Shown here in pieces: positions 4,037 through 18,057 of a stretch of DNA of 20,000 bases. This stretch comes from Reclinomonas americana ATCC 50394 (Eukaryota). The number at the start of each line of letters is the position of its first letter. Position 1 is the first letter of the stretch. Below the pieces are notes generated by a model. That model ran no database searches and was not told where the DNA came from. It was given only the letters and a program-made list of their open reading frames with translations. The stretch covers positions 508,173 through 528,172 of the forward strand of contig PS015020.1 of NCBI GenBank assembly GCA_048213135.1. Reading direction: 5' to 3'. Made by a program: the position numbers and the translations under genes.

Positions 4037-5122
4037 TTATTTCTCAGTCTTGCTGTCGACCACGGCCTCGTCACCGAGGGCGGCCAGGGTGCAGACAATC
4101 ACCGTCTCGCCAGCATCGTACGAGGCGCGGATCTTGTCGCCAACCTCACCCTCCGGGAGCTTGAGGTCAGACTGCGCACACCTCCAATCAGTCATCTCCT
4201 TCTCCGCATCTCTTCGCCAGCCAATACATGCAGCAAACCTTCTCCGAGCCGTCCTCAGTCAGGAGCGACAGGAAGCCGTCGGCGGTGATGTCGAGCAGGG
4301 TGTACTCGAACTTGTTGACGACCTGCATCGACGAGATGATGAGGACAAAGAAGCAATTCGTCATGTGTGTGAACAGATGAGCGACAAACCGGCTGCTCCA
4401 TGTTGTGCGACGTCGGGCACGAATCCTCGTACTTCTTGCCCGTGAAGATGTCGACGCCCATCATGTTGGCCTGTGTCACCAAAAAAAGTGTGTGAGATGG
4501 CGACATTAAACACACGACAGACCACGAGACAAGGCGAGAAGAAGGAGAGGAGCGCGTGCGTGTATATGCGGATGAGTGTGTATGTGTGTGTGTTTGAAAG
4601 GGAAGGTGTCATGTGCGGGGGCGAGTGAGAGGGGAGAGGGAGGGGGAAACATGGCGAACCTTGGCGTGACCGTGCTTGCCAGTCTTGGAGGTGGTGACCT
4701 CGATAATCTTGCACGGCTTGCCCTTGATCATCACCAGCGTGCCCTATGCACAAAAGCAGAGAGAGAGAAATATGAGACACACACAAAGATGACGCTGAGA
4801 GAGCGCAGCGCATGAGCATTGCCCGCCATGGCACTACCCCCACTCTCTCTCCGCCTCTCGTTCACTTCCTCGCTGTCACACACACATACACATACGCACA
4901 CGCGCGCGCACGCTTGACGAAGAAAACACACAGTCGATGTTGACATTGGGTATGACGCGTGCGTGGATCCGACAACAACACTACACACACTCTCTGCTCT
5001 CTGCTGCCTCTCTCTCTCTCTATCACGCTCTGACTGACCTTGCGGACGGCGCCGGCCTGAATGGGCACGGTCTTGGACGCGCCAGAATCAGAAACCTCAA
5101 CCTCAGTGTCGACTCCAGACAT
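4037..5122 (-). CDS. eIF5A: Eukaryotic translation factor eIF5A (hypusine-containing), 155 aa, 5 exons
   Basis: Exons are 5122-5039, 4743-4660, 4470-4390, 4322-4239 and 4171-4037, all GT-AG and phase 0. Spliced protein: [155 protein letters not shown]. It contains the diagnostic hypusination motif [10 protein letters not shown]. Confidence 0.98.
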
Positions 5123-6061: not shown

Positions 6062-7130
6062 CACCAACCACCACCACCACCACCTCCTCCTCTTCCTCTT
6101 CGCCACCATCGTCACCGTCTCTTGCGCCCTCGCACACACGGCGACAGCGAATTCGAATGAGTGCGCGGTGCTCAACTCCAAGGAGTCTCCTGTGAGCACA
6201 CACAATGTGCATCCGACGCTCGGCGACAACCTTACCATGATTGTGCGCCAGCGTCGCGTGACGCACTCCCTCTCTGGCATCACCGACACGCACGAAGCAG
6301 GCACGTACCAACGCAATGTCCGCTGTGCCAAATACCAATGCCATACAATCTCACTCTCACTCTCTCTCTCTCCCTCTCTCCCTCTCCCTCACCCAGTGCT
6401 GGCGTACGGGCGCCAGCACGGCCTGCAGCACGACTGCGCAGCGCTGGAGGAGATGCACGACGCGGCCGTGCGTGCGCTGCGAAAGCACACGCGCAATGCG
6501 GTGATGGCGCAGTATCCGAGGCTGGCGAGGCCACCAAAGGAGGCCTTCCGCACGCCGGACTACTCGGCATTCTCCAATTTTTACGACCGATTCCTGGAGG
6601 TGGTGCCGGTGGAGACCACGTGGCGCATGCTGGAGATTGGCACGCTGGAGGGACGCACGGCGTTCTACTTGCTGAACAACTCGCCGCCGACAACCACTCT
6701 CGACTGCATCGACGACGGCAACAGTCTCGACACCTTCAACCGCGTGCTCGCTCCCTTCCTGGAGCAGGGCCGAGTGAGCTTTCTGCGCGGCGCCAGCGTT
6801 CCGATCATGGCGCGCATGGTGGGTGCCCAGCCGCCTGTCGAGCCGTACGACTTCATCTATGTCGACGGCTGCCACACGGCGATTCGCACGCTGGAGGACC
6901 TGACGTTGGCCTTTCGGCTGCTGCGCGTCGGTGGCATCATGGCCATCGACGACTACCTGCTGAAATCCGACGAGCCGTGGGTGCCGGCCTTCCACAAGCC
7001 GACGCCGGCCGTCGACGCCTTCCTGCAGGTGTACACCGCCGAGGTGGTCGTGCTGCACAAGGCGTATCAGGTGTGGGTACGCAAGCTGGCGCCACCCGAC
7101 GGCCTGTGTGGCTGCCACGCGATTCAGTGA
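6062..7130 (+). CDS. Class I SAM-dependent methyltransferase (Methyltransf_24-like) with a hydrophobic signal/anchor segment; start codon unresolved
   Basis: Motif I is MLEIGTLEGRTAFYLL, followed by YDFIYVDGCH...EDLTLAFRLLRVGGIMAIDDY, typical of Methyltransf_24. The main exon is 6397-7130 (TGA). Likely in-frame introns are 6192-6251 (GTGAGC..CAG, 60 nt) and 6301-6396 (GCACGT..CAG, 96 nt). The upstream exon encodes LLLFLFATIVTVSCALAHTATA. No in-frame ATG precedes it, so a further 5' exon is probable (possible acceptor CAG at 6059-6061). Confidence 0.85.
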
Positions 7131-8378: not shown

Positions 8379-11300
8379 ATGACTCTCGCCAGTGACGATG
8401 GCGGTGTGGCGCTCCTCTTCATCGCCTCCACGGTGAGTCTCTCTCTCTTCTCTCTCTGTCTTCCCCTCCTCCTCCACCACACACACGCATTGTCAGAGAG
8501 AGAGAGAGGGAGTGGCTGTGTGTGCGTCAAGCAATACCATTTTCTTTCATCTTCCCCTGTTCCGTTGTGCCACCTGTGATGTGACACCTGCCACATCACG
8601 CGATACAGGCGCTGCTGGGCCCGCTCGGCTACCTGCTCATCGAGGCGTCGACTACCCGCGCCGGCATCCAAAACTCAGTCTTTCGCTGTTTCCTCGCCCT
8701 CGCCGTTGCCGGCCTCTGCTGGTGGCTCCTCGGTGCCGCCGTCGCCACTCCGTCCGCCGGCAATGGTGTACTGAGCGTGCGCACGGAGGCACTGGCCAGT
8801 GTGCCCACACAGAGCGCCATTGAGTGGATGTTTGGCTTGTCGCTTCTAACAGCCTGTGGTGCGTTTTTTTTTAAGCGTCCATGTCGCGCGGAGTTCAATA
8901 TCCGGTATTGACACCTTGTTCTCAGTCGCGACCATCAGTGGTGCGGTGGCCGAGCGCGCCAAGCTGAGCGCGTACGTGGCGCTGTGTGTGTTCGTGTCGG
9001 TGGTGGTGTTTCCGTTGGTGTCGTCGTGGACGTGGGCGGTTTCGGGCTTTCTTAGCGGGTACGTTGTTGAAAAACTCGCATTACCTTTTCGGGAAACGGT
9101 ATCTCCAGCTCTCCCTTCCTTTCTTTGTTGTCGTCGATGTCGAGGGCTGCGTGTGCAGAGGAGAGACACTCCCACACGCTCGTTTGTGTGAGTGTGCCTC
9201 CTGGCTCTTAATATCGCTTTTACAGTTCGTCGCGCACTCTTTTTGTCGTCTGTGTGCGTGTTCGTGTGCTCTCTTTGTATGTTCGCGCGTGGTGTGTGTC
9301 TGCGTGTCTGTGTGTCTTTGTGTCTTTGCGTGTGTCTGGTGAGTGCGCGTGGCTGCGTGTCTGGTCTCAAAAATGTGCTGTTTTCTGTTGTCTCACCACT
9401 GGTTTTTGACTTGCGTTTTCAGACTCTTTTCTCTCTCTCTCCTGCTCGCTCGCTCTCCGTCTTTCTCTCGTGCCCTGTGTCAACGCACTGTATGTGTTTG
9501 CGTCGCGATCGTCTGTTTTTTCTCAGCGGAGACATCGTGCGCATGCGCACGTTTCTTTTTTGGTTTTGTGTCGTCTCTCTTCTCTTTTCTTTCTCTTTCT
9601 CTTTCTCTCGCACATCCCCCTGCCTTGTCATCATGGGTGGATGTTTGCGCGTGCTGATCACCCGCATGGCATCTGCTATGCGCCTGACAACCAGATTCTT
9701 TTGTTTTCTCTTTCCTCTCGCTCGCCCCTATCGCACCCCACTCTCCTCCTCCACCTCCTCCTCCTCCTCCACCCTCCCTGCCTCGCCTTCTCTCCTCAAT
9801 CGTGTTCGGGAATCGCAAACCCTTCCATATATAGTGATGCATCTCCTTTTTCTTTTTGTGCAGTCGTGCCCCGGCCTCGTCTCGCCTGGTCGGCGGCATA
9901 TTCCTCGTGGACGCCGCCGGTGCCGGTGCAGTGCACCTCGTCAGCGGCATGGTCGCGCTGGTCGCCGCCAAACTCGTCGGTCAAAAGGCAGAAACCGCCT
10001 CCTCAGCAGCATCCAGCACCAGCCGGAACAGCGCTGTGCACAAAACCGCAACTGCCACCACCACCACCAAGACCGTATCGCCGTCCACCACCATTGCATC
10101 TCCGTCACCGGTTTCTGCCACGGTGACACCGGATCCGCATGCACCCGTACGCACCACGGCGGATTTCTGTGCCGCGCCCTCGGCCGCAGGCACCACACTC
10201 GGCCACGAGCTGGGCATGTCGCGACGCAATGTGCTGCGCAGTGGCGGGGAGATGCCGACCGCCGAGGATGTGGAGAGTGGCGGCTTCGGCGGCAGCAGTG
10301 GCGGCGATGAGCCGGATGTGGAGGATGACGACGAGGAGACGCTGGATCCGCATGTGGAGCTGCTGCGCGCGGCGTGGGTGAAGAACCAGTTTATTTTGCA
10401 GGCGTTTGGCACGTTGTTGGTGGTGCTGTCGTGTGTTGGACTGGCGGGTGCGTCGCCGTGGCTTCTCGTTGGTCACGGAGACATTTCCATGTCCATTAGT
10501 GGTGAGCTGGAAGAGGGGGGAGGAGGAGGAGCAGGGGGAAAGGAGAAGGGAGAGAAGGAGGAGAAGAGGGGAAGAAGGGGGATGAAGAGGAAGAGAGGAG
10601 GGGAAAGAGTAGCAGCAGCAGCAGCAGCAGCAGCGGCAGAAGAATAAGAAGAAGAGAAAAACAACAAGAAGATAACGGAGGAGAAGAATAACGATGAAGA
10701 GAAACAAGAACAAGAAGACAAGAAGAAAAGAGGAACAAGAAAAAGAAGAAGAGAGTAAGAAGAAGCAAAGATGACAGGGGGAGGAGAGAAGAGAGTCTTT
10801 GCTTTTTTCTTTTCTTTGTTGTTGCTGACCTCCGTCTTTCCCTCGTCCGCAGCCACCGCCGTTGTCAACACATTGCTGTGCTCGTTCGCGTCGGCGGCCG
10901 CCACGGTGACGCTCAGCCGCCTGATGCAGGGCCGCTACGACCTGCAGAGTCTACTAAACTCGGCAATCGCTGGCGCTGTGGCGGCGTCGTCTGGGTGTGC
11001 GGTGGTGGCCTCGTGGGGTGCCGTTCTTACGGGAATCGCCGCCGCCTTTTTGTACCGCATGGCCACGGCACTGTTGAGACGGTGGCGACCAGTGGACTCG
11101 ATCGAGGTGTGGCCTGTGCATGCTGCGTGCGGTGCTTGGGGTCTTCTCGCCACCGGCATCCTCGCCGACTCGGATCGCGTCACTCTTGGTGCGTTGTGGG
11201 TTTTCCAGTCGCTTTCTGTTATTATCATTGTCTTCTCACCCCCACCTCCTCACCAGTGTACGGCCCCGGCTCGTCGGCATCGGTGTTTGCGCGCATTGGC

Positions 11301-11450
11301 GTGCAGCTGCTGGGTCTGTCTGTCATCTCGCTGTGGACGCTCATCACCACCGCCGTGTTCCTGTGGGCCCTCCCGCTCATGTACACCGACAAGCGACTGC
11401 ACGAGCGGTCCGCGTCGGTGCATCTGTTTGGCGACGACACGGAGTTGGTG
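8379..11450 (+). other. Amt/Mep/Rh ammonium transporter domain (exons 1-6 of the fusion gene)
   Basis: Hydrophobic helices in the Amt order. Twin His codons are at 9934-9936 (GAVHLVSG) and 11119-11121 (PVHAACG), and the GAxAER motif is at about 8941-8958. Confidence 0.92.
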
Positions 11451-14400
11451 CGGGTGCTGGCCACCCCGCCGCAGATGCCCAACGAGCAGGCGCCGCGGGG
11501 ATTTGTTTGTGTGGCGTTTACGGATATTGTTGCGCAACGGGAAAGGGGTAAAAGGGGAGAAGGGGAGAAGGGGAGAAAGGGGAGAAAGGAGAGTCAAAGT
11601 TCAGAATGTGATGAGAAAGAACGGTGTCAGAGGAGAAGAGTAAGACAGAAGACGAGAGGGAGGATAGAGGGGCATGGGAACGGAGAGAAGGAGAAGGGAA
11701 AGAGGAGGAGGAAAAAGAGGAGACAGGGGAGGAAGGAGATCCAGAGCGCAGAACCTGGTGATTTGGAGACGGGAAGTCAGAGGAGAAGAAAGACAGAAGG
11801 CGAAAGGGAGGATAGAGGGGCATGGGGGAGGAGTGAAGGAGGAGAGAAAATGTGAAAGGAATTGGAGAGAAAGAGAGAGGGAAGGAAGGAGAGTCAGAGT
11901 GACAGCGGAGAAAGATATGGCGCGAAAGGAGAGAGACAGAAGATGAGAGGGAGGGAAAGGTGGAATAGACGGGAATGGGAGAAATATAGAGAAGGAGAAA
12001 GGAAAGAGGAGGAAGAAGAGGCAGAGTGGAGAGCGGAGAAGAAATGGCGGGGTTTTGAGAGCCCTCTGCGCTCTATTTTTATGTTGCTTTGAGTAGTAAT
12101 GGAAAGAAGGAGAAAGCAACGAGGAGAAGGAGGAAGAGCCAGAGTGCAACATGTCTCTCCAACCATCACTGATCATGTTCTTCACACTGCCTTCTTCTTC
12201 CTCCTCTTTCCCTTCTCCTTCTCCGTTTCTCCCGGGCACAGTCCTTTCTCGTCTTCTGTCTTTTGTCTTTCTCCTCTTTTTTCGCTCAATCCACTGCACT
12301 TCTTGTCGCGTAGAAGCCACGACTTCTTTGTCGTTCTCTTGTCTGTCTACGTTACCACCATCAAGAACTGATGTTTGTGCGATCCTCCTTGCCTTCCATT
12401 CTGTAGCAACTGTCATCATCGTCCTCTTAGTTTATCAGCCCTTCTGTTCTCCCACTCTCTTCTTTCTCTCACCTCATTTTCCCCCCACTCGCAGGAGGCA
12501 TCCACCGCACTGTGGGAGACCGATCCGAAAGTAATGGCGGCCTGCATCAAGGTGCACCACACGCTCCTCCGCCGCACCATTCGCGAGTTCAACGGCTTCG
12601 AGGTCAAGACCGAGGGCGATGCATTCATGGTGACGTTCAGCAGTCCGGTCGATGCACTGCGGTGGGCGCTGCACACGCAGGTGGACTTGCTGGAGGCCGC
12701 GTGGCCGCGTGCCGTCTTCAAGCTGCAGTATGCGCAGATTCAAGGTTTGGTTTTCTTTCCTCAACAGCGCCTGTGTATTGCCCGCCTGCTTACGCTGTTC
12801 CTCCGCCACAGAGTCTCCGCTCACTGGCATCCTGTATCGCGGTCCGCGAGTGCGCATGGGCATACACTACGGCATGGCGATGGACCACATTGACGAGACA
12901 GGTTCGTTGCATCTCATCGGTATTGCTTCCAAGCCCAGCTGCTCATCCGCGCGCGCCACAGTCAACCGGCTGGACTACTACGGACCGACCATCAATCGTG
13001 CCGCGCGAGTGGCCGGCACTGCCGACGGCGGCTTCATCAACGTGTCGGACGACTTGCTGCGACAGATCCCGCGCTTCTCCAACGGCCAGCTCGACCTCTC
13101 CCCAGATTTCGAGGAGGGAACCGTGGTCGTGAATCATCTGGGCGCTCTGCCGTTGAAGGGCGTCACGGAGCAGATTCACGTGTATCAGGTGCTGCCGTTT
13201 GCGCTGCAGGAGCGTCTGGGACCGGATGCGCACTGGAACATGATCACCTCGCCGCCCATTCAACCGCAGCAGTCGATGAACGATTTGAGTGGCGACGAGC
13301 TGCTCCTCAACGATTCACCGCGACCCAATCTGTTCTTGGACGACCTGCCGTCGCCCAAGGATCACCTCACGGTGAACAAGCTGCGCGCGGCTTCGGAGGT
13401 GAGCTATTCATCATACATCTCTCTCCGGATTGTTCAAGTCGTCTCACCTCGTATTCCCCCCACGCAGCACATCATGTCGCCCGCCACCATGCACACCGTC
13501 GTCAGCCTGACACACCACGAGCACGGGGCAGGCGTGGACTCGCAAGCCAGTGTCTCGCTGGATCCGCGCACCGTCTCCGCCTCGGTGCTGCTGTCGCGAC
13601 TGCCGTCACACCCGGCCACGCCGACCAACAGTCTCACCAATCGCTCCGTGCACTCGTCGCTGCACCGTTTCGTCGGACGACCGGGCATGGCGCAGAGTAT
13701 GATTGCCTCGCCGAGCTGCGCATCGCCGCGGGTGCAAACGTCTCTGCGCCGCCGCTGGCACAAGGCGCAGGAGCGACTGGCGCTGTACCGCGGTCTCGAC
13801 GCCAGTGCCAATCTGCCGTTTGCGGTCATGGCCAACGATCCCGAGGTCATGCACTCGCTGCAGCAGCAGGAGCGACTGGTGTCGGGCATGGCGAACGGGG
13901 GTGACACGATTGTGGTGGTGGACGGCGCGGGTGCGGGATCGGGTGGAGCTCACGGGGCGCCTCCGGCCATGGGTGGTGCTGGCGGCGGTGGTGGTGCCGG
14001 AATGGCAGCTGCCACTGGCAATGGTGGTGGTCAAGGCGGTGGCGCGGCTGGCGGTGGTGACGCGGCGCAAATGGCACGTGCGGCATTCCAGCGGCGCAGC
14101 GCCTCACGCGGCAGTCGCATGTCTTTAGGCAGCGGCCTGCTGCGCAGTCGGCTGCTGGCGGCGCACAATCGATCGCAGGCGTACGCTCTCAACGAGCTGC
14201 ACCATCATCACCACCAACAGCAGCAGCCGCAACACCATCATCACACCTCAAATCGCCACCTCCAGTCCTACTACCCCGTGCAACACGATCGCGACGCGGA
14301 GGCGTCCATGGACGACGACCAGGAGAATTCGGGCATCACCTCGCCAGTGCAACTGCCTGGCGTGGTGCGGCAGCGGAGGCGTGGATCGCAGTCGCACTTA

Positions 14401-14577
14401 AATAACGAGCGACTGCAACCACGATCGACCAACATGCCACTGGTTCCAGCCTCACCATCGATGCTGAGAAGCGGCGGTGGCATGGCTTCACCACCCCCAC
14501 CACAATCACAGCCACCACCCTCGCCGGGTTCGCACGAGCGGGAGGATGTGGAGAGCGGTCCCATGGAACGATGGTGA
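8379..14577 (+). CDS. Amt/Mep-family ammonium transporter domain fused to a class III adenylyl cyclase, with a long low-complexity C-terminal tail (about 1189 aa, 10 exons)
   Basis: Exons are 8379-8432, 8609-8858, 8926-9058, 9864-10501, 10853-11188, 11257-11528, 12495-12744, 12812-12901, 12962-13398 and 13468-14577. All introns are GT-AG with matching phases; the total is 3570 nt with no internal stop. Amt motifs: GYLLIEAS, ISGAVAERAKLSAY, FPLVSSWTW..GFL, VDAAGAGAVHLVSG, VVNTLL, LNSAIAGAVAASSGCAVV, WPVHAACGAWGLLATGI. Cyclase motifs: APRGFVCVAFTDI/EASTALWE, FEVKTEGDAFMVTF, GPRVRMGIHYG, LDYYGPTINRAARV, LPLKGV. The last Amt helix and the cyclase start lie in the same exon (exon 6). Confidence 0.93.
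11490..13200 (+). other. Class III nucleotidyl cyclase catalytic domain, adenylyl-specific signature (exons 6-9 of the fusion gene)
   Basis: Metal-binding Asp residues are in FTDI and EGDAF. The ATP-specifying Lys (VKT) and Asp (LDYYG) are present, as are the transition-state Asn/Arg (NRAAR). STALWE/KTEGDAFM matches the single-domain homodimeric cyclase type seen in fungi and various protists. Confidence 0.93.
11592..11970 (+). repeat. Degenerate purine-rich tandem duplication (about 148 nt period) within intron 6 of the Amt-cyclase gene
   Basis: The 21-mer GGGAGGATAGAGGGGCATGGG is exact at 11658 and 11806, each preceded by GTCAGAGGAGAAGA..AAGACAGAAG. A weaker third copy lies around 11890-11970. 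Confidence 0.65.
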
Positions 14578-14834: not shown

Positions 14835-16363
14835 TCAATGATGATCGTGGTGGTGGAACGAATCGTCCTTGATGCCTAGGAGGAATTTAGCGTACCTGGT
14901 GGCACGACAACAGTCCGTCAGTCAGTCAAGCGTGCCACCATGCCGATGGATGAAAGCGATTGCACGCGCGCGACGCAACTCGTACGTCATCCATGAAATG
15001 GCGGCGGACGGGGCAACATACAGAGCTCGTGCCGATGCACCCTGGAAGAAGCCGGAGACGCCGGCATTCCGGTACACGTACTTGGCGGCGTCCATGAAGC
15101 CTCGAAAGGTGACACCCAGCGAGCCTTGCGTCTGCAGGTAGGTCTTGATGACGTCCAGCGGGTTGGAGATCAGGGCGGCTGCGGCTCCAGCCGTGCCGCC
15201 GCTGACAAAGTGCTTCCAAAGCGCGGAGCCGTCACTGCGGGGAAGGAAAAAGGGGGAGAAGGGAAAGGGGGTGAGAGGGGGAAAAGGGGGGAGAAAGGGG
15301 AAGGGGGAAGGGGGAAAAGGGGAAGGGGGAAGTGAGGATGGAGAAGCGGAAGAAAATGATGATGAATGTGTAAATGATGAAGAGGAAGAGAGGCAGGAGA
15401 CTGACGGGCGAGGTTGGGCAAGAGAGGTAGAGAAGGAGAGAGAGAGAGAGAGTGAGAAACGTGCAGAAGGTAGAGCTGAAAGGAAAAGGATGCTGAGATT
15501 TGGTGTGGGACAAGGAACGGAGGCGAAAGAGAAACATGCGAAGGTGTGCAGGCGAGAAAGAGATACGATACAGAGAGTGAGACAGAGAGAAGTGACAACG
15601 ACAGACACGCAGAGGCTGAAAGTGAGGACAGAAGTTGTTGAATTTGGAAGTGAGGAGCAAGAAGAGAGACACAGGTGAAGTCGTGCAGGAGAGAGAAAGA
15701 GACGCCAACACAGAGAGACAGAATGCGAAAGCGAGAGACATGACAAGGTTGAGATTGGGGAAGAGAGAGAGAGAGAGGAGGGAGGACAGAGAGAGAAGAG
15801 AGAGAGAGAGAAGCAAGAAAGAAAGCGTGAGAGGAAGAGAGAAAGGAGACGGGGGAGAGTTTCTCTTTCCCAACAAAACGCAACGCCATATCGTCGGGTT
15901 GTCGGAGTACTCGTTTCGCGCTCTCGTACACGGCAAAGTGCACGGCGCTGTACGGAATGTTCATGGCGAGGGTGGTGGGGTACGAGACAAAGAAGGCACG
16001 CATGCCTTCTGCGGCATACACGTGTCGCACACAGGAGAGCACACTTCTGTGCTGACTCTGGAACAGTTGCATGCGTTGCTTGATTACGTCGGTCGGGGTG
16101 ACGACGGCGTCGTGGGCGGCCACCGCCACGGCACCGGCCAGGCCGGCGGCGATCGGATGGTGGCCGGGCTGATCGGCACCGAACCATTTCTTGGCTTGCT
16201 CGTAGGCGGCAAAGGAGAGGGCGTGGGAGGGGATGGCGCCGCCGGCGGCCACACTCACGCCGCGCCACAGGCGCATGATGCCCTCGGTGCGGAGGACGGT
16301 CTGCGAGAGGATAAGGGGAATGAGGAGAAGGGATTGAGGAGAAGGGTTAGGAGAAAGGGGAGA

Positions 16364-16398
<35 letters not shown>

Positions 16399-16509
16399 GA
16401 GGAAGGAAGGAGAGAGAAGAAGAGAGAGAGGGACGACGAGAGAGAGAGAGAGAGAGAGAAAGAAGAGAGAGAANNNNNNNNNNNNNNNNNNNNNNNNNNN
16501 NNNNNNNNN

Positions 16510-16606
<97 letters not shown>

Positions 16607-16611
16607 GAGAG

Positions 16612-16649
<38 letters not shown>

Positions 16650-18057
16650 GAGGAAAGGGAATGGAATGAAAAGAGAGGAGAAATGCGAGGCCAGAGAAGG
16701 ACAAGAAGAGAACAGGTGAAGAAAAAAGGGCAGTGAATGCTGAGAATTCAAGCTGGAAATGAGAGGGTAGGAGTAGAGAAAGAAGAGCGAGGGGAAGGAG
16801 CGAGTTGATAGTGTGAACGCAACTCCAACAGCATTGACCACGCCCGTGTAGTGAGGGCTGGTGGCGATAGTGGCGACCTGTGAGGAGGTAAGCGATTCAG
16901 TGTTGGTTTGCACAGGCATCGAGCATCAGAACTGCCTTCGGAAAGGACGAGAAGAAGAGACAGCGAAAACTCGTTGATGTTGAGTGTGACTACTCGAGAC
17001 TGGTCACTTCTCTGTAGTCTCATCCGAAATAGAGAAGGCAGGTCTGAGAGGGAGAGGAAGTGACGAAGACGAAGCCTGAGACAATAGAAGTGTACGTTGT
17101 GTGATTGGGTGTCGCTTTTGCTGACTCGTCGCACACACCCGCACATCAAGCCTCAGTATTGCACAGTTCCCTCTCAGGAGGAAGACAAGGGGGAGAGAGA
17201 AGACAAGTCTGAGACAATAAGAGAGGTGCACGGGTGATTGATGTGTGACCACTCGAGACTCGTCACTTACTGCAGTCTCTCTCACAAACACGCATCCAGC
17301 GGGCAAGGGAAAGACAGTCGAGGGCATGCGAATAGGCGCACGGGTGATTGAGTGTGACCACTCGAGACTCGTTACAAACCGCAGTCTCTCTTTCAAACAG
17401 GCATCGTCGAGGGCAAGGAAGAGACAGTCGAGGGCATGAGAAAGGAGCACGGGTGATTGATGTGTGACCACTCACAACTCGTCACTTTCTGCAGTCTTTC
17501 TATCAAACACGGATTCAACGGGCAAGGAAGAGACAGTCGGGGTGATTGATGTGTGACCACTCGAGACTCGTCACTTTCTGCAGTCCCTCTCAAGGAAGAG
17601 ACAGTCGAGGGCATGAGAAAGGAGCACACGGGTGACCACTCGAGACTCGTCACATACTGCTGCCCCTCTCAAACACACAAAGAAGCCTCAGTGCAGACCT
17701 GTTCTTTCTCTGTCTCTGCTTCTCTCGCACTCTGACTCAATGCAATCACTGATGCACCACATCAAAAAATCTCCGACATACCCCCTTTTCCTCCCCATAT
17801 CCCCTCCCTTTCCCTCCACCCTCTCCATCTCACCTGTAACCGCGTCTTAATCGTATCCACTGGATACATGACCACGTGCTCCAAGCAACCCGCCAGTGCC
17901 CCCGCCGCCATGTGCTGCACAAAGGCCGCTTCTCCTCCCCCGTGCTCCTCGCCCGCATGGTGATCATGATGATCATGGGCTAAGGGTAAGAGAGGAGAGA
18001 GAGCAAAGAGAGAGTGAGAGGGTCAACATTTCCAACAACTTTGCAAACACACACGCG

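Follow-up and report, generated by a model that had tools for sequence, protein, structure and literature searches.

Amt proteins are obligate trimers, and their cytoplasmic C-terminal region acts as an allosteric switch. In eukaryotes, the link between ammonium sensing and the cyclic AMP (cAMP)/protein kinase A (PKA) pathway has been discussed largely on the basis of Mep2, the "transceptor" of fungi, which is a protein separate from the cyclase and coupled to it indirectly. Trypanosomatid receptor cyclases are single-pass proteins with an extracellular, binding-protein-like sensor and not a transporter fold. In bacteria, Amt modules fused to a transducer serve as receptors, with Ks-Amt5 and Sd-Amt1 as the characterised examples. 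The authors of PMC11152129 conclude that the sensor of Sd-Amt1 remains trimeric and that its transducer dimerises on activation, and a HAMP domain is not required in Ks-Amt5 (PMC5764959). Proteins in which Amt is fused to other modules are assigned to all domains of life in PMC11152129, the available portion of which does not name a cyclase of the class III type among them. The present analysis concerns a gene in a 20,000-nucleotide stretch of Reclinomonas americana ATCC 50394 (contig PS015020.1, positions 508,173 to 528,172), referred to below as the window. Located at 8379-14577 on the forward strand, this gene joins an Amt module to a class III adenylyl cyclase domain, and its sequence indicates that it encodes a real, probably active receptor-type adenylyl cyclase built on an Amt scaffold.

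Joining ten exons by coordinate gives a single open frame of 3570 nt, corresponding to 1189 aa and a stop codon, and all nine introns start with GT, end with CAG and have compatible phases. The open reading frame (ORF) of about 1189 aa from ten exons that the original prediction had proposed was therefore recovered. The GC content is 0.60-0.66 in the exons and 0.46-0.60 in the introns, the value at third codon positions (GC3) reaches 0.75, and five of the nine introns fall into a tight size class of 60-69 nt. The fusion point lies in exon 6 (11257..11528), one uninterrupted ORF in which the last Amt helix is followed by a linker of 46 aa and then by the first cyclase strand. Because transmembrane helix 11 (TM11) and this strand share one exon ORF, the Amt and cyclase modules are physically joined. 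Independent support comes from P0015 (UniRef100_A0A6T1ZNL6), a transcript-derived protein of 746 aa from Eutreptiella gymnastica that carries both PF00211 and PF00909. In BLASTP, an unbroken alignment between it and the joined window protein extends from TM6 across the linker and the whole cyclase (30% identity over 496 columns, E 3e-58; model residues 285-759 and P0015 residues 193-666), and a second segment covers TM1-TM5 (E 2e-23). The earlier statements that the last Amt helix and the first cyclase strand lie in exon 6 with no stop between them, and that the fusion is not an artefact of two joined genes, are confirmed by the single ORF of exon 6 and by this unbroken alignment. It is thus very likely that the locus is one fused gene, and fusion to a C-terminal cytoplasmic transducer, which is a trait of Amt-like ammonium receptors, is present in its product.

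The Amt module occupies the first six exons. Exon 1 (8379..8432) opens with the ATG at 8379, preceded by an in-frame TAG three codons upstream, and supplies a short N-terminus along with the beginning of TM1. TM1-TM3 are encoded by exon 2 (8609..8858), while exon 3 (8926..9058) carries the ISGAVAER motif, TM4 and the outer-vestibule Trp. Exon 4 (9864..10501) comprises TM5 with the conserved Asp and the first His of the twin-His pair, a cytoplasmic insert of 133 aa in loop 5 (9982-10380) that is rich in Thr/Ala/Ser and acidic residues, and TM6. In Ks-Amt5, loop 5 adjoins the C-terminal linker of the neighbouring subunit (PMC5764959). Exon 5 (10853..11188) encodes TM7-TM10, including the second His, and exon 6 encodes TM11 (approximately 11307-11363) and the Amt C-terminal region with the linker (11364-11501). 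The first cyclase strand completes exon 6, with FTDI at its end, and the donor is GTTGCG. Pfam was run on seven unspliced ORF pieces with cut-offs of 23.2 bits for PF00909 and 21.9 bits for PF00211. PF00909 matched three of the seven, namely exon 5 (2e-23, 83.3 bits), exon 3 (1.4e-07, 31.1 bits) and, slightly below the cut-off, exon 4 (9.5e-05). The exon 2 and exon 6 pieces matched no Pfam family, and exon 2 alone had no match among solved Amt structures. In an alignment to 13 relatives, however, TM1-TM11 are all covered, and the eleven helices are collinear with those of the Amt/Mep/Rh family. Ten hydrophobic segments exceed a Kyte-Doolittle value of 1.4, with the equivalent of TM10, which holds the second His, below this threshold.

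The residues compared correspond, in AmtB numbering, to positions 168 and 318 (twin-His), 160 (Asp), 148 (Trp), 219 (Ser), and F107 and F215 (Phe gate). The window protein retains both His residues, the conserved TM5 Asp, the outer Trp and the outer Ser, i.e., five of five. It also retains the residues at positions Glu29 (in exon 2), Ser107 and Tyr119 of Sd-Amt1, with a Tyr aligned to Tyr119, and has Arg at switch position 44. Sd-Amt1 numbering was taken from the structures 8qj3, 8qj4 and 8qpf, in which the aligned Gln22, Glu29, Lys44, Asn45, Asp48, Tyr119 and His169 agree with the text of PMC11152129. The column of the first His was checked against His169, which forms the twin-His pair of Sd-Amt1 together with His323 (PMC11152129). 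Among solved structures, exon 3 is best matched by Sd-Amt1 (chain 8qj3, residues 106-140, E 4.7e-4). The order of its matches resembles that of P0015, with sensor Amts ahead of AmtB and the Mep2 chains weaker.

The cyclase begins in exon 6 and continues in exon 7 (12495..12744), which encodes the N-terminal half of the domain, including the substrate Lys and, in EVKTEGDAF, the second metal Asp. The central strand with RVRMGIHYG follows in exon 8 (12812..12901). Exon 9 (12962..13398) supplies the C-terminal half, with the specificity Asp, the Asn and the Arg in LDYYGPTINRAAR; the domain ends near 13218, where a disordered tail of approximately 420 residues starts. Most of this tail lies in exon 10 (13468..14577, stop codon 14575-14577), is of low complexity and rich in Ser, Gly, Ala, Pro and His/Gln, and matched no Pfam family. 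Intron 8 (12902..12961) is easy to overlook, since its 60 nt are in frame and free of stops. Reading through it would add 20 residues that are absent from both P0015 and GRESAG4.3 of Trypanosoma brucei, whereas its removal restores the motif spacing of these two proteins and its length fits the 60-69 nt class. The junction of exons 7 and 8 is ungapped in the P0015 alignment.

PF00211 matched two of the seven pieces, exon 7 above the cut-off (1.8e-06, 28.1 bits) and the ORF of exons 8-10 below it (0.0037, 17.3 bits). The best solved match of exon 7 is 1fx4, which is T. brucei GRESAG4.3 (1.4e-11), followed by 1fx2 (8.6e-11), among seven chains at E <= 1e-3. The complete catalytic set D, K, D, D, N, R, comprising two metal-binding Asp, the substrate Lys and Asp, the Asn and the Arg, is found in one chain, as the original prediction had stated on the basis of the same residues. 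The roles of these positions in metal binding, substrate binding and transition-state stabilisation are presumed from the class III literature. Because all six occur in a single polypeptide, the domain is predicted to be of the homodimeric, ATP-specific class III adenylyl cyclase type, and it is likely that the window protein makes cAMP. Of the 13 fusion proteins compared, 11 have the same six residues intact; the exceptions are P0246, with a degenerate first half, and P0287. An "LF-DD" stretch ahead of the cyclase was considered as a signature of the junction and dropped; it belongs to the cyclase domain, since alignments of fungal Cyr1-type proteins begin at the same point.

The gene is not a lone case, since 12 of the 120 listed P0015 matches and six of 16 scanned long relatives are Amt-cyclase proteins. 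None of the searches yielded a protein nearly identical to that of the window. With exon 7, a word-based search gave mostly fungal Cyr1-type adenylyl cyclases among the 120 listed of 194 matches, and P0015 was the one with both PF00211 and PF00909. With exon 5, a first word-based search gave one match, a plain Amt, and the Atlas gave only generic Amt fragment clusters; an exhaustive library search gave 2393 proteins at E <= 1e-3. Five of the top 150 proteins on this exon 5 list were matched by the window cyclase in BLASTP. The search with P0015 itself listed 120 proteins, and the 12 with PF00909 and PF00211 come from euglenid transcriptomes and other assemblies: Eutreptiella (MMETSP), five Euglena gracilis transcripts (EG_transcript_673, 1187, 1810, 2799 and 7721), three GGOE transcripts and further assemblies. 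One Amt-cyclase protein is already in UniRef with both domains. Eutreptiella is a euglenid, while Artemidia motanka and Namystynia karyoxenos, the sources of several proteins described next, are hemistasiid diplonemids.

Pfam analysis of the 16 long relatives from the exon 5 list identified PF00211 in six, from diplonemid transcriptomes and other assemblies. P0122, P0134, P0168 and P0250 have the order Amt-Amt-cyclase, P0246 has a single Amt and two cyclase halves, and P0124 combines tandem Amt modules with a cyclase of another, distant type. P0122, P0134 and P0124 are Artemidia Trinity transcripts, and the PF00211 scores of the first two are approximately 100 bits. In two of the 16, tandem Amt modules are fused to a protein kinase (P0128 and P0129, Artemidia) and in four to a cNMP-binding domain (P0126, P0140, P0189 and P0164, from Namystynia and "Hpha" transcripts, with P0164 also carrying Ion_trans), while four consist of tandem Amt modules only. 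Diplonemid Amt modules appear both in proteins that produce a cyclic-nucleotide signal and in proteins that receive one. A further set of ten mid-size proteins, made up of P0287 from the P0015 search and nine members of the exon 5 list, comprised nine plain Amt proteins and one of the bacterial Amt-HAMP-MCP type; this chemoreceptor-type fusion, P0239 (757 aa), is presumably bacterial. In P0246 (1206 aa, Logan assembly), the first cyclase half keeps the metal Asp and is without the Lys, Asp, Asn and Arg, and the second half has the Asn/Arg motif. It resembles a C1/C2 pair in one chain, an arrangement that would sidestep the mismatch between a trimeric sensor and a dimeric enzyme.

A two-ammonium signature, Q..E..N..D..T..S/T, called the N1/N2 site, has been proposed for the Sd-Amt1 and Ks-Amt5 receptors (PMC11152129). 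All six residues are kept in seven of the 13 relatives, namely P0015, P0275, P0276 and the second Amt domains of P0122, P0134, P0168 and P0250, and five of the six in EG_transcript_2799. The Amt part of P0015 matches the sensor Amts (8qj3/8qpf 1e-51, 6eu6 1e-48) far better than AmtB (approximately 1e-24). In PMC6776534, EG_1810 appears as an up-regulated transcript and is called just "an ammonium transporter" in the available text; by its label it appears to be P0280, EG_transcript_1810, which is an Amt-cyclase fusion. The original prediction knew of no characterised eukaryotic Amt-cyclase, and none emerged here: searches of full-text literature found no description of one, with Tremblay and Hallenbeck 2009 and the supplements of papers, which might list fused Amts, lying outside their coverage. 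The window gene therefore extends a known kind of Amt-fold receptor, in sequences that are public and partly auto-annotated, and it is not a new category.

The question of origin was approached through trees of the two domains. The top ranks of diplonemid proteins in the exon 5 search were not accepted as a sign of kinship, and trees were built because such ranks partly reflect the added score of two Amt domains. The cyclase tree comprised 36 rows and a careful search, and the Amt tree 50 rows and a quick search. In the cyclase tree, the euglenid fusions form a starred clade (99/98), as do the tandem-type fusions (99/95). Constraining the window protein to the euglenid clade costs 2.4 units of log-likelihood (lnL), with a P value in the approximately unbiased test (p-AU) of 0.214, and is not rejected. 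In the Amt tree, the window protein is sister to the euglenid clade with a support of just 35.8. A constraint that groups it with the euglenid and the tandem-type (diplonemid-type) domains lies 16.3 lnL above the free quick search (p-AU 0.77), although this grouping was defined only once the first tree was known. Shared ancestry with the euglenid fusions is therefore not rejected by the sequences, which does not demonstrate a clade. A ready-made bacterial fusion was also sought. None of the best 80 among at least 545 prokaryotic Amt loci runs on into a cyclase or has one within 2 kb, a weak negative because the scan was seeded with Amt motifs alone, and their match to P0015 stops at residue 452 at the latest. 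Separate phylogenies had been suggested as a way to distinguish a transferred bacterial fusion from one made in eukaryotes; both were run, and the window protein sits on a long branch each time. Compared with an independent fusion, one old eukaryotic fusion family, probably of euglenozoan type, with the window protein as a fast-evolving member is somewhat more likely.

Based on these results, the favoured reading, to which a probability of roughly 0.5 is assigned, is that of an intact receptor-type adenylyl cyclase gene. Its product consists of an 11-helix Amt/Mep/Rh module, a linker without HAMP, a class III cyclase and a tail, and the state of the Amt module would be coupled to the cyclase. 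The Amt module would form a trimer, as in all Amt proteins. The most likely signal state would be ammonium occupancy at the retained outer Trp/Ser site and in the twin-His pore. This state would be passed on through the C-terminal region, i.e., the switch in other Amt proteins, whose movement would allow or prevent the pairing of cyclase domains and, in this way, cAMP synthesis. For Sd-Amt1, a dimeric transducer that pairs beneath a trimeric Amt core has been proposed (PMC11152129).

A number of observations weigh against this reading, some of them at the level of the gene model, which is based on sequence and homology alone. The GTTGCG donor of exon 6 is weak, and a stronger donor in phase with this exon, GTAAGA at 11640..11645, would insert 37 additional charged residues after FTDI and ahead of the next cyclase motif, within the catalytic core. 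Homology nevertheless favours the weak donor, because an insert at the point between exons 6 and 7 occurs in none of the 13 aligned relatives. With this donor, FTDI joins EASTALWE at the start of exon 7, P0015 is continuous across the same point, and two other donors in the gene also start with GTT. The remaining difficulties concern the sensor. In the N1/N2 signature, the window protein reads P, E, C, A, A, S, so that only two of six residues are kept. Gln22, Asn45 and Asp48, all in exon 2, and Thr104 are replaced by Pro, Cys, Ala and Ala, respectively. Both positions of the Phe gate are Leu. The gate is Phe/Phe in nine of the 13 relatives, has Tyr in first place in three, and is Leu/Cys in P0246. 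In TM6 (exon 4), Cys, Leu and Ala stand where relatives have Trp, Phe and Asn, and one of the two Asp residues before the second His is Val. None of the 13 compared relatives shows the combination of all these replacements. In the cyclase tree, the weak group (81/71) to which the window protein belongs also contains the fungal Cyr1 type and two bacterial cyclases and lies outside the fusion clades. The window protein lies on a long branch in both trees (1.96 and 2.83 changes per column) and in no starred clade. Furthermore, a scaffold of three subunits is at odds in number with an enzyme of two. An AlphaFold2 model of P0015 recovers both folds, with a mean predicted local distance difference test (pLDDT) score of 69 and a predicted TM-score (pTM) of 0.52. 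Its linker, residues 419-433, has a pLDDT below 50, and because of this low confidence the model is uninformative on coupling and docking.

Consequently, the claim of a "complete Amt fold" stands for the length of the module, but several pore and sensor residues in it are replaced. Similarly, the idea of a receptor that converts extracellular ammonium into cAMP agrees with the architecture, the full catalytic set and the preserved core of the pore, while the loss of four of the six N1/N2 residues and the Leu at both gate positions speak against it. In those euglenid and diplonemid relatives whose sensor site is intact, control of cyclase output by ammonium is reasonably probable. For the window protein such control is rated lower, because the N1/N2 site and the Phe gate are lost, and may be considered possible but somewhat doubtful.

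These losses also argue for a different function of the Amt module. It may have degenerated to a membrane anchor or oligomerisation scaffold, or it may have been retuned to a ligand other than ammonium, with the cyclase under other inputs, such as phosphorylation of the 133-aa loop 5 insert or the 420-aa tail. The window protein alone has lost four N1/N2 residues together with both gate Phe and the TM6 Trp and Asn, its branch is the second longest in the Amt tree, and its low-complexity inserts are large and rich in Ser/Thr. However, the preservation of the twin-His, the conserved Asp, the outer Trp and Ser, Glu29, Ser107 and Tyr119 would be unexpected for a mere anchor, and the frame is intact across ten exons. 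This explanation is therefore regarded as unlikely, though not negligible. Of a similarly low probability, and equally speculative, is a broader proposal. It assumes an undescribed, widespread class of Amt-fold receptors wired to cyclic nucleotides in Euglenozoa and in the eukaryote of the window, comprising cAMP generators, kinases and cNMP receivers. The window protein, with its Leu/Leu gate and kept twin-His and without N1/N2, would be a retooled member that couples a different event, e.g., the flux of NH3/NH4+ or of another small cation or amine, to cAMP. If true, it would represent the first eukaryotic one-component nutrient-to-cAMP route.

The Amt module might also still conduct ammonium, so that the cyclase would report the flux or the resulting pH change, not binding alone. 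The kept twin-His and outer recruitment site agree with such a transceptor. Moreover, proteins with the N1/N2 residues can still transport, for example plant AMT1 (PMC11152129). According to AmtB mutagenesis, however, the Phe of the inner gate is needed for conduction, and it is Leu in the window protein. The characterised fused sensors gave charge displacement and not transport (PMC11152129). Overall, a transceptor is considered improbable. It is hardly credible that the gene is an annotation artefact or in decay, i.e., that it represents two transcripts or a pseudogene with an open frame by chance. One weak donor and a very divergent sequence could be cited in its favour. They are outweighed by the shared exon of TM11 and the first cyclase strand, by nine phase-compatible GT..CAG introns, by a GC3 of 0.75 against an intron GC of 0.46-0.60, and by the collinearity with transcript-derived fusions (3e-58). 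The next gene upstream ends at 7130, and the end of the next gene downstream, on the other strand, is at 14925.

A polypeptide consisting of an Amt module and an adenylyl cyclase would provide a direct read-out, with ammonium as the input and cAMP as the measured product. It would carry the idea of Amt receptors, developed for Ks-Amt5 and Sd-Amt1, over to eukaryotes and add a third type of output. Relatives with N1/N2 retained, such as P0015 and the Artemidia proteins, are the better first objects for experiments, and the window protein, as a natural variant without the N1/N2 site, offers a useful contrast. A structural puzzle is posed at the same time, namely how a trimeric sensor controls an enzyme that functions as a dimer.

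The surroundings of the gene are intron-rich. Upstream, an intronless Methyltransf_24 gene occupies 6381-7127 on the forward strand (Pfam 4e-11). In the Atlas, the clusters closest to it are 91-100% viral (Nucleocytoviricota, Uroviricota), and the gene may have been acquired by transfer. An exon with the eIF5A N-terminal domain lies at 4258-4608 on the reverse strand (Pfam 1.2e-07). A mitochondrial-carrier gene with several introns (14925-16750, reverse strand) is transcribed towards the 3' end of the cyclase gene, and an assembly gap (N run 16474-16509) falls within one of its introns, which is CT-rich. There is no room for further domains of the cyclase gene between its neighbours. Runs of (CT)n/(GA)n and (CA)n are frequent over the whole window. 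Within the cyclase gene, the forward strand of introns 4 (10502-10852) and 6 (11529-12494) is purine-rich (0.78 and 0.62, respectively) with GA-rich runs, and intron 6 contains two near-identical stretches of approximately 35 nt near 11644 and 11792.

The window protein can be compared with several known systems. Fungal Mep2 and the cAMP/PKA pathway share with it an ammonium-transporter fold that signals in a eukaryote, but sensor and cyclase are separate there, and the Mep2 chains are weaker matches than the sensor Amts. The trypanosomatid GRESAG4.1/4.3 proteins (1fx2, 1fx4) provide the nearest solved catalytic domain, with the same motif spacing once intron 8 is removed. The channel-cyclases of ciliates and Plasmodium and CYA18 of Chlamydomonas (PMC9561859) are alike in architecture, combining a transport or channel module of a protist with a class III adenylyl cyclase, and differ in that the membrane module is of the K+-channel type and not Amt. 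Sd-Amt1 of Shewanella denitrificans (8qj3, 8qj4, 8qpf; PMC11152129) is the closest solved relative of window exon 3 and of P0015. It likewise places a C-terminal nucleotide cyclase that needs dimerisation under a trimeric Amt core. It is, however, bacterial, with a HAMP domain, a GGDEF diguanylate cyclase and an N1/N2 site that is present and essential, whereas the window protein has a class III adenylyl cyclase and neither HAMP nor N1/N2. Ks-Amt5 of 'Candidatus Kuenenia stuttgartiensis' (6eu6; PMC5764959) shares the direct, HAMP-less join to the transducer and the Arg at the switch position, but is bacterial, keeps N1/N2 and has a histidine kinase as output. Among the eukaryotic relatives, the hemistasiid proteins P0122 and P0134, which come from transcripts, likewise carry a class III cyclase behind Amt and retain its catalytic residues. 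They differ in having two tandem Amt modules, a linker approximately 70 residues longer, and sister architectures with protein kinase or cNMP-binding domains, in one case together with an ion-channel domain. The euglenid Amt-cyclases (P0015 and the EG_transcripts) are 30-33% identical to the window protein, keep the Phe gate and mostly N1/N2, and are without the loop 5 insert and the long tail. Like the window protein, they have a single Amt module, a short linker without HAMP and a cyclase in which D, K, D, D, N and R are all present, and they align with it ungapped across the junction.

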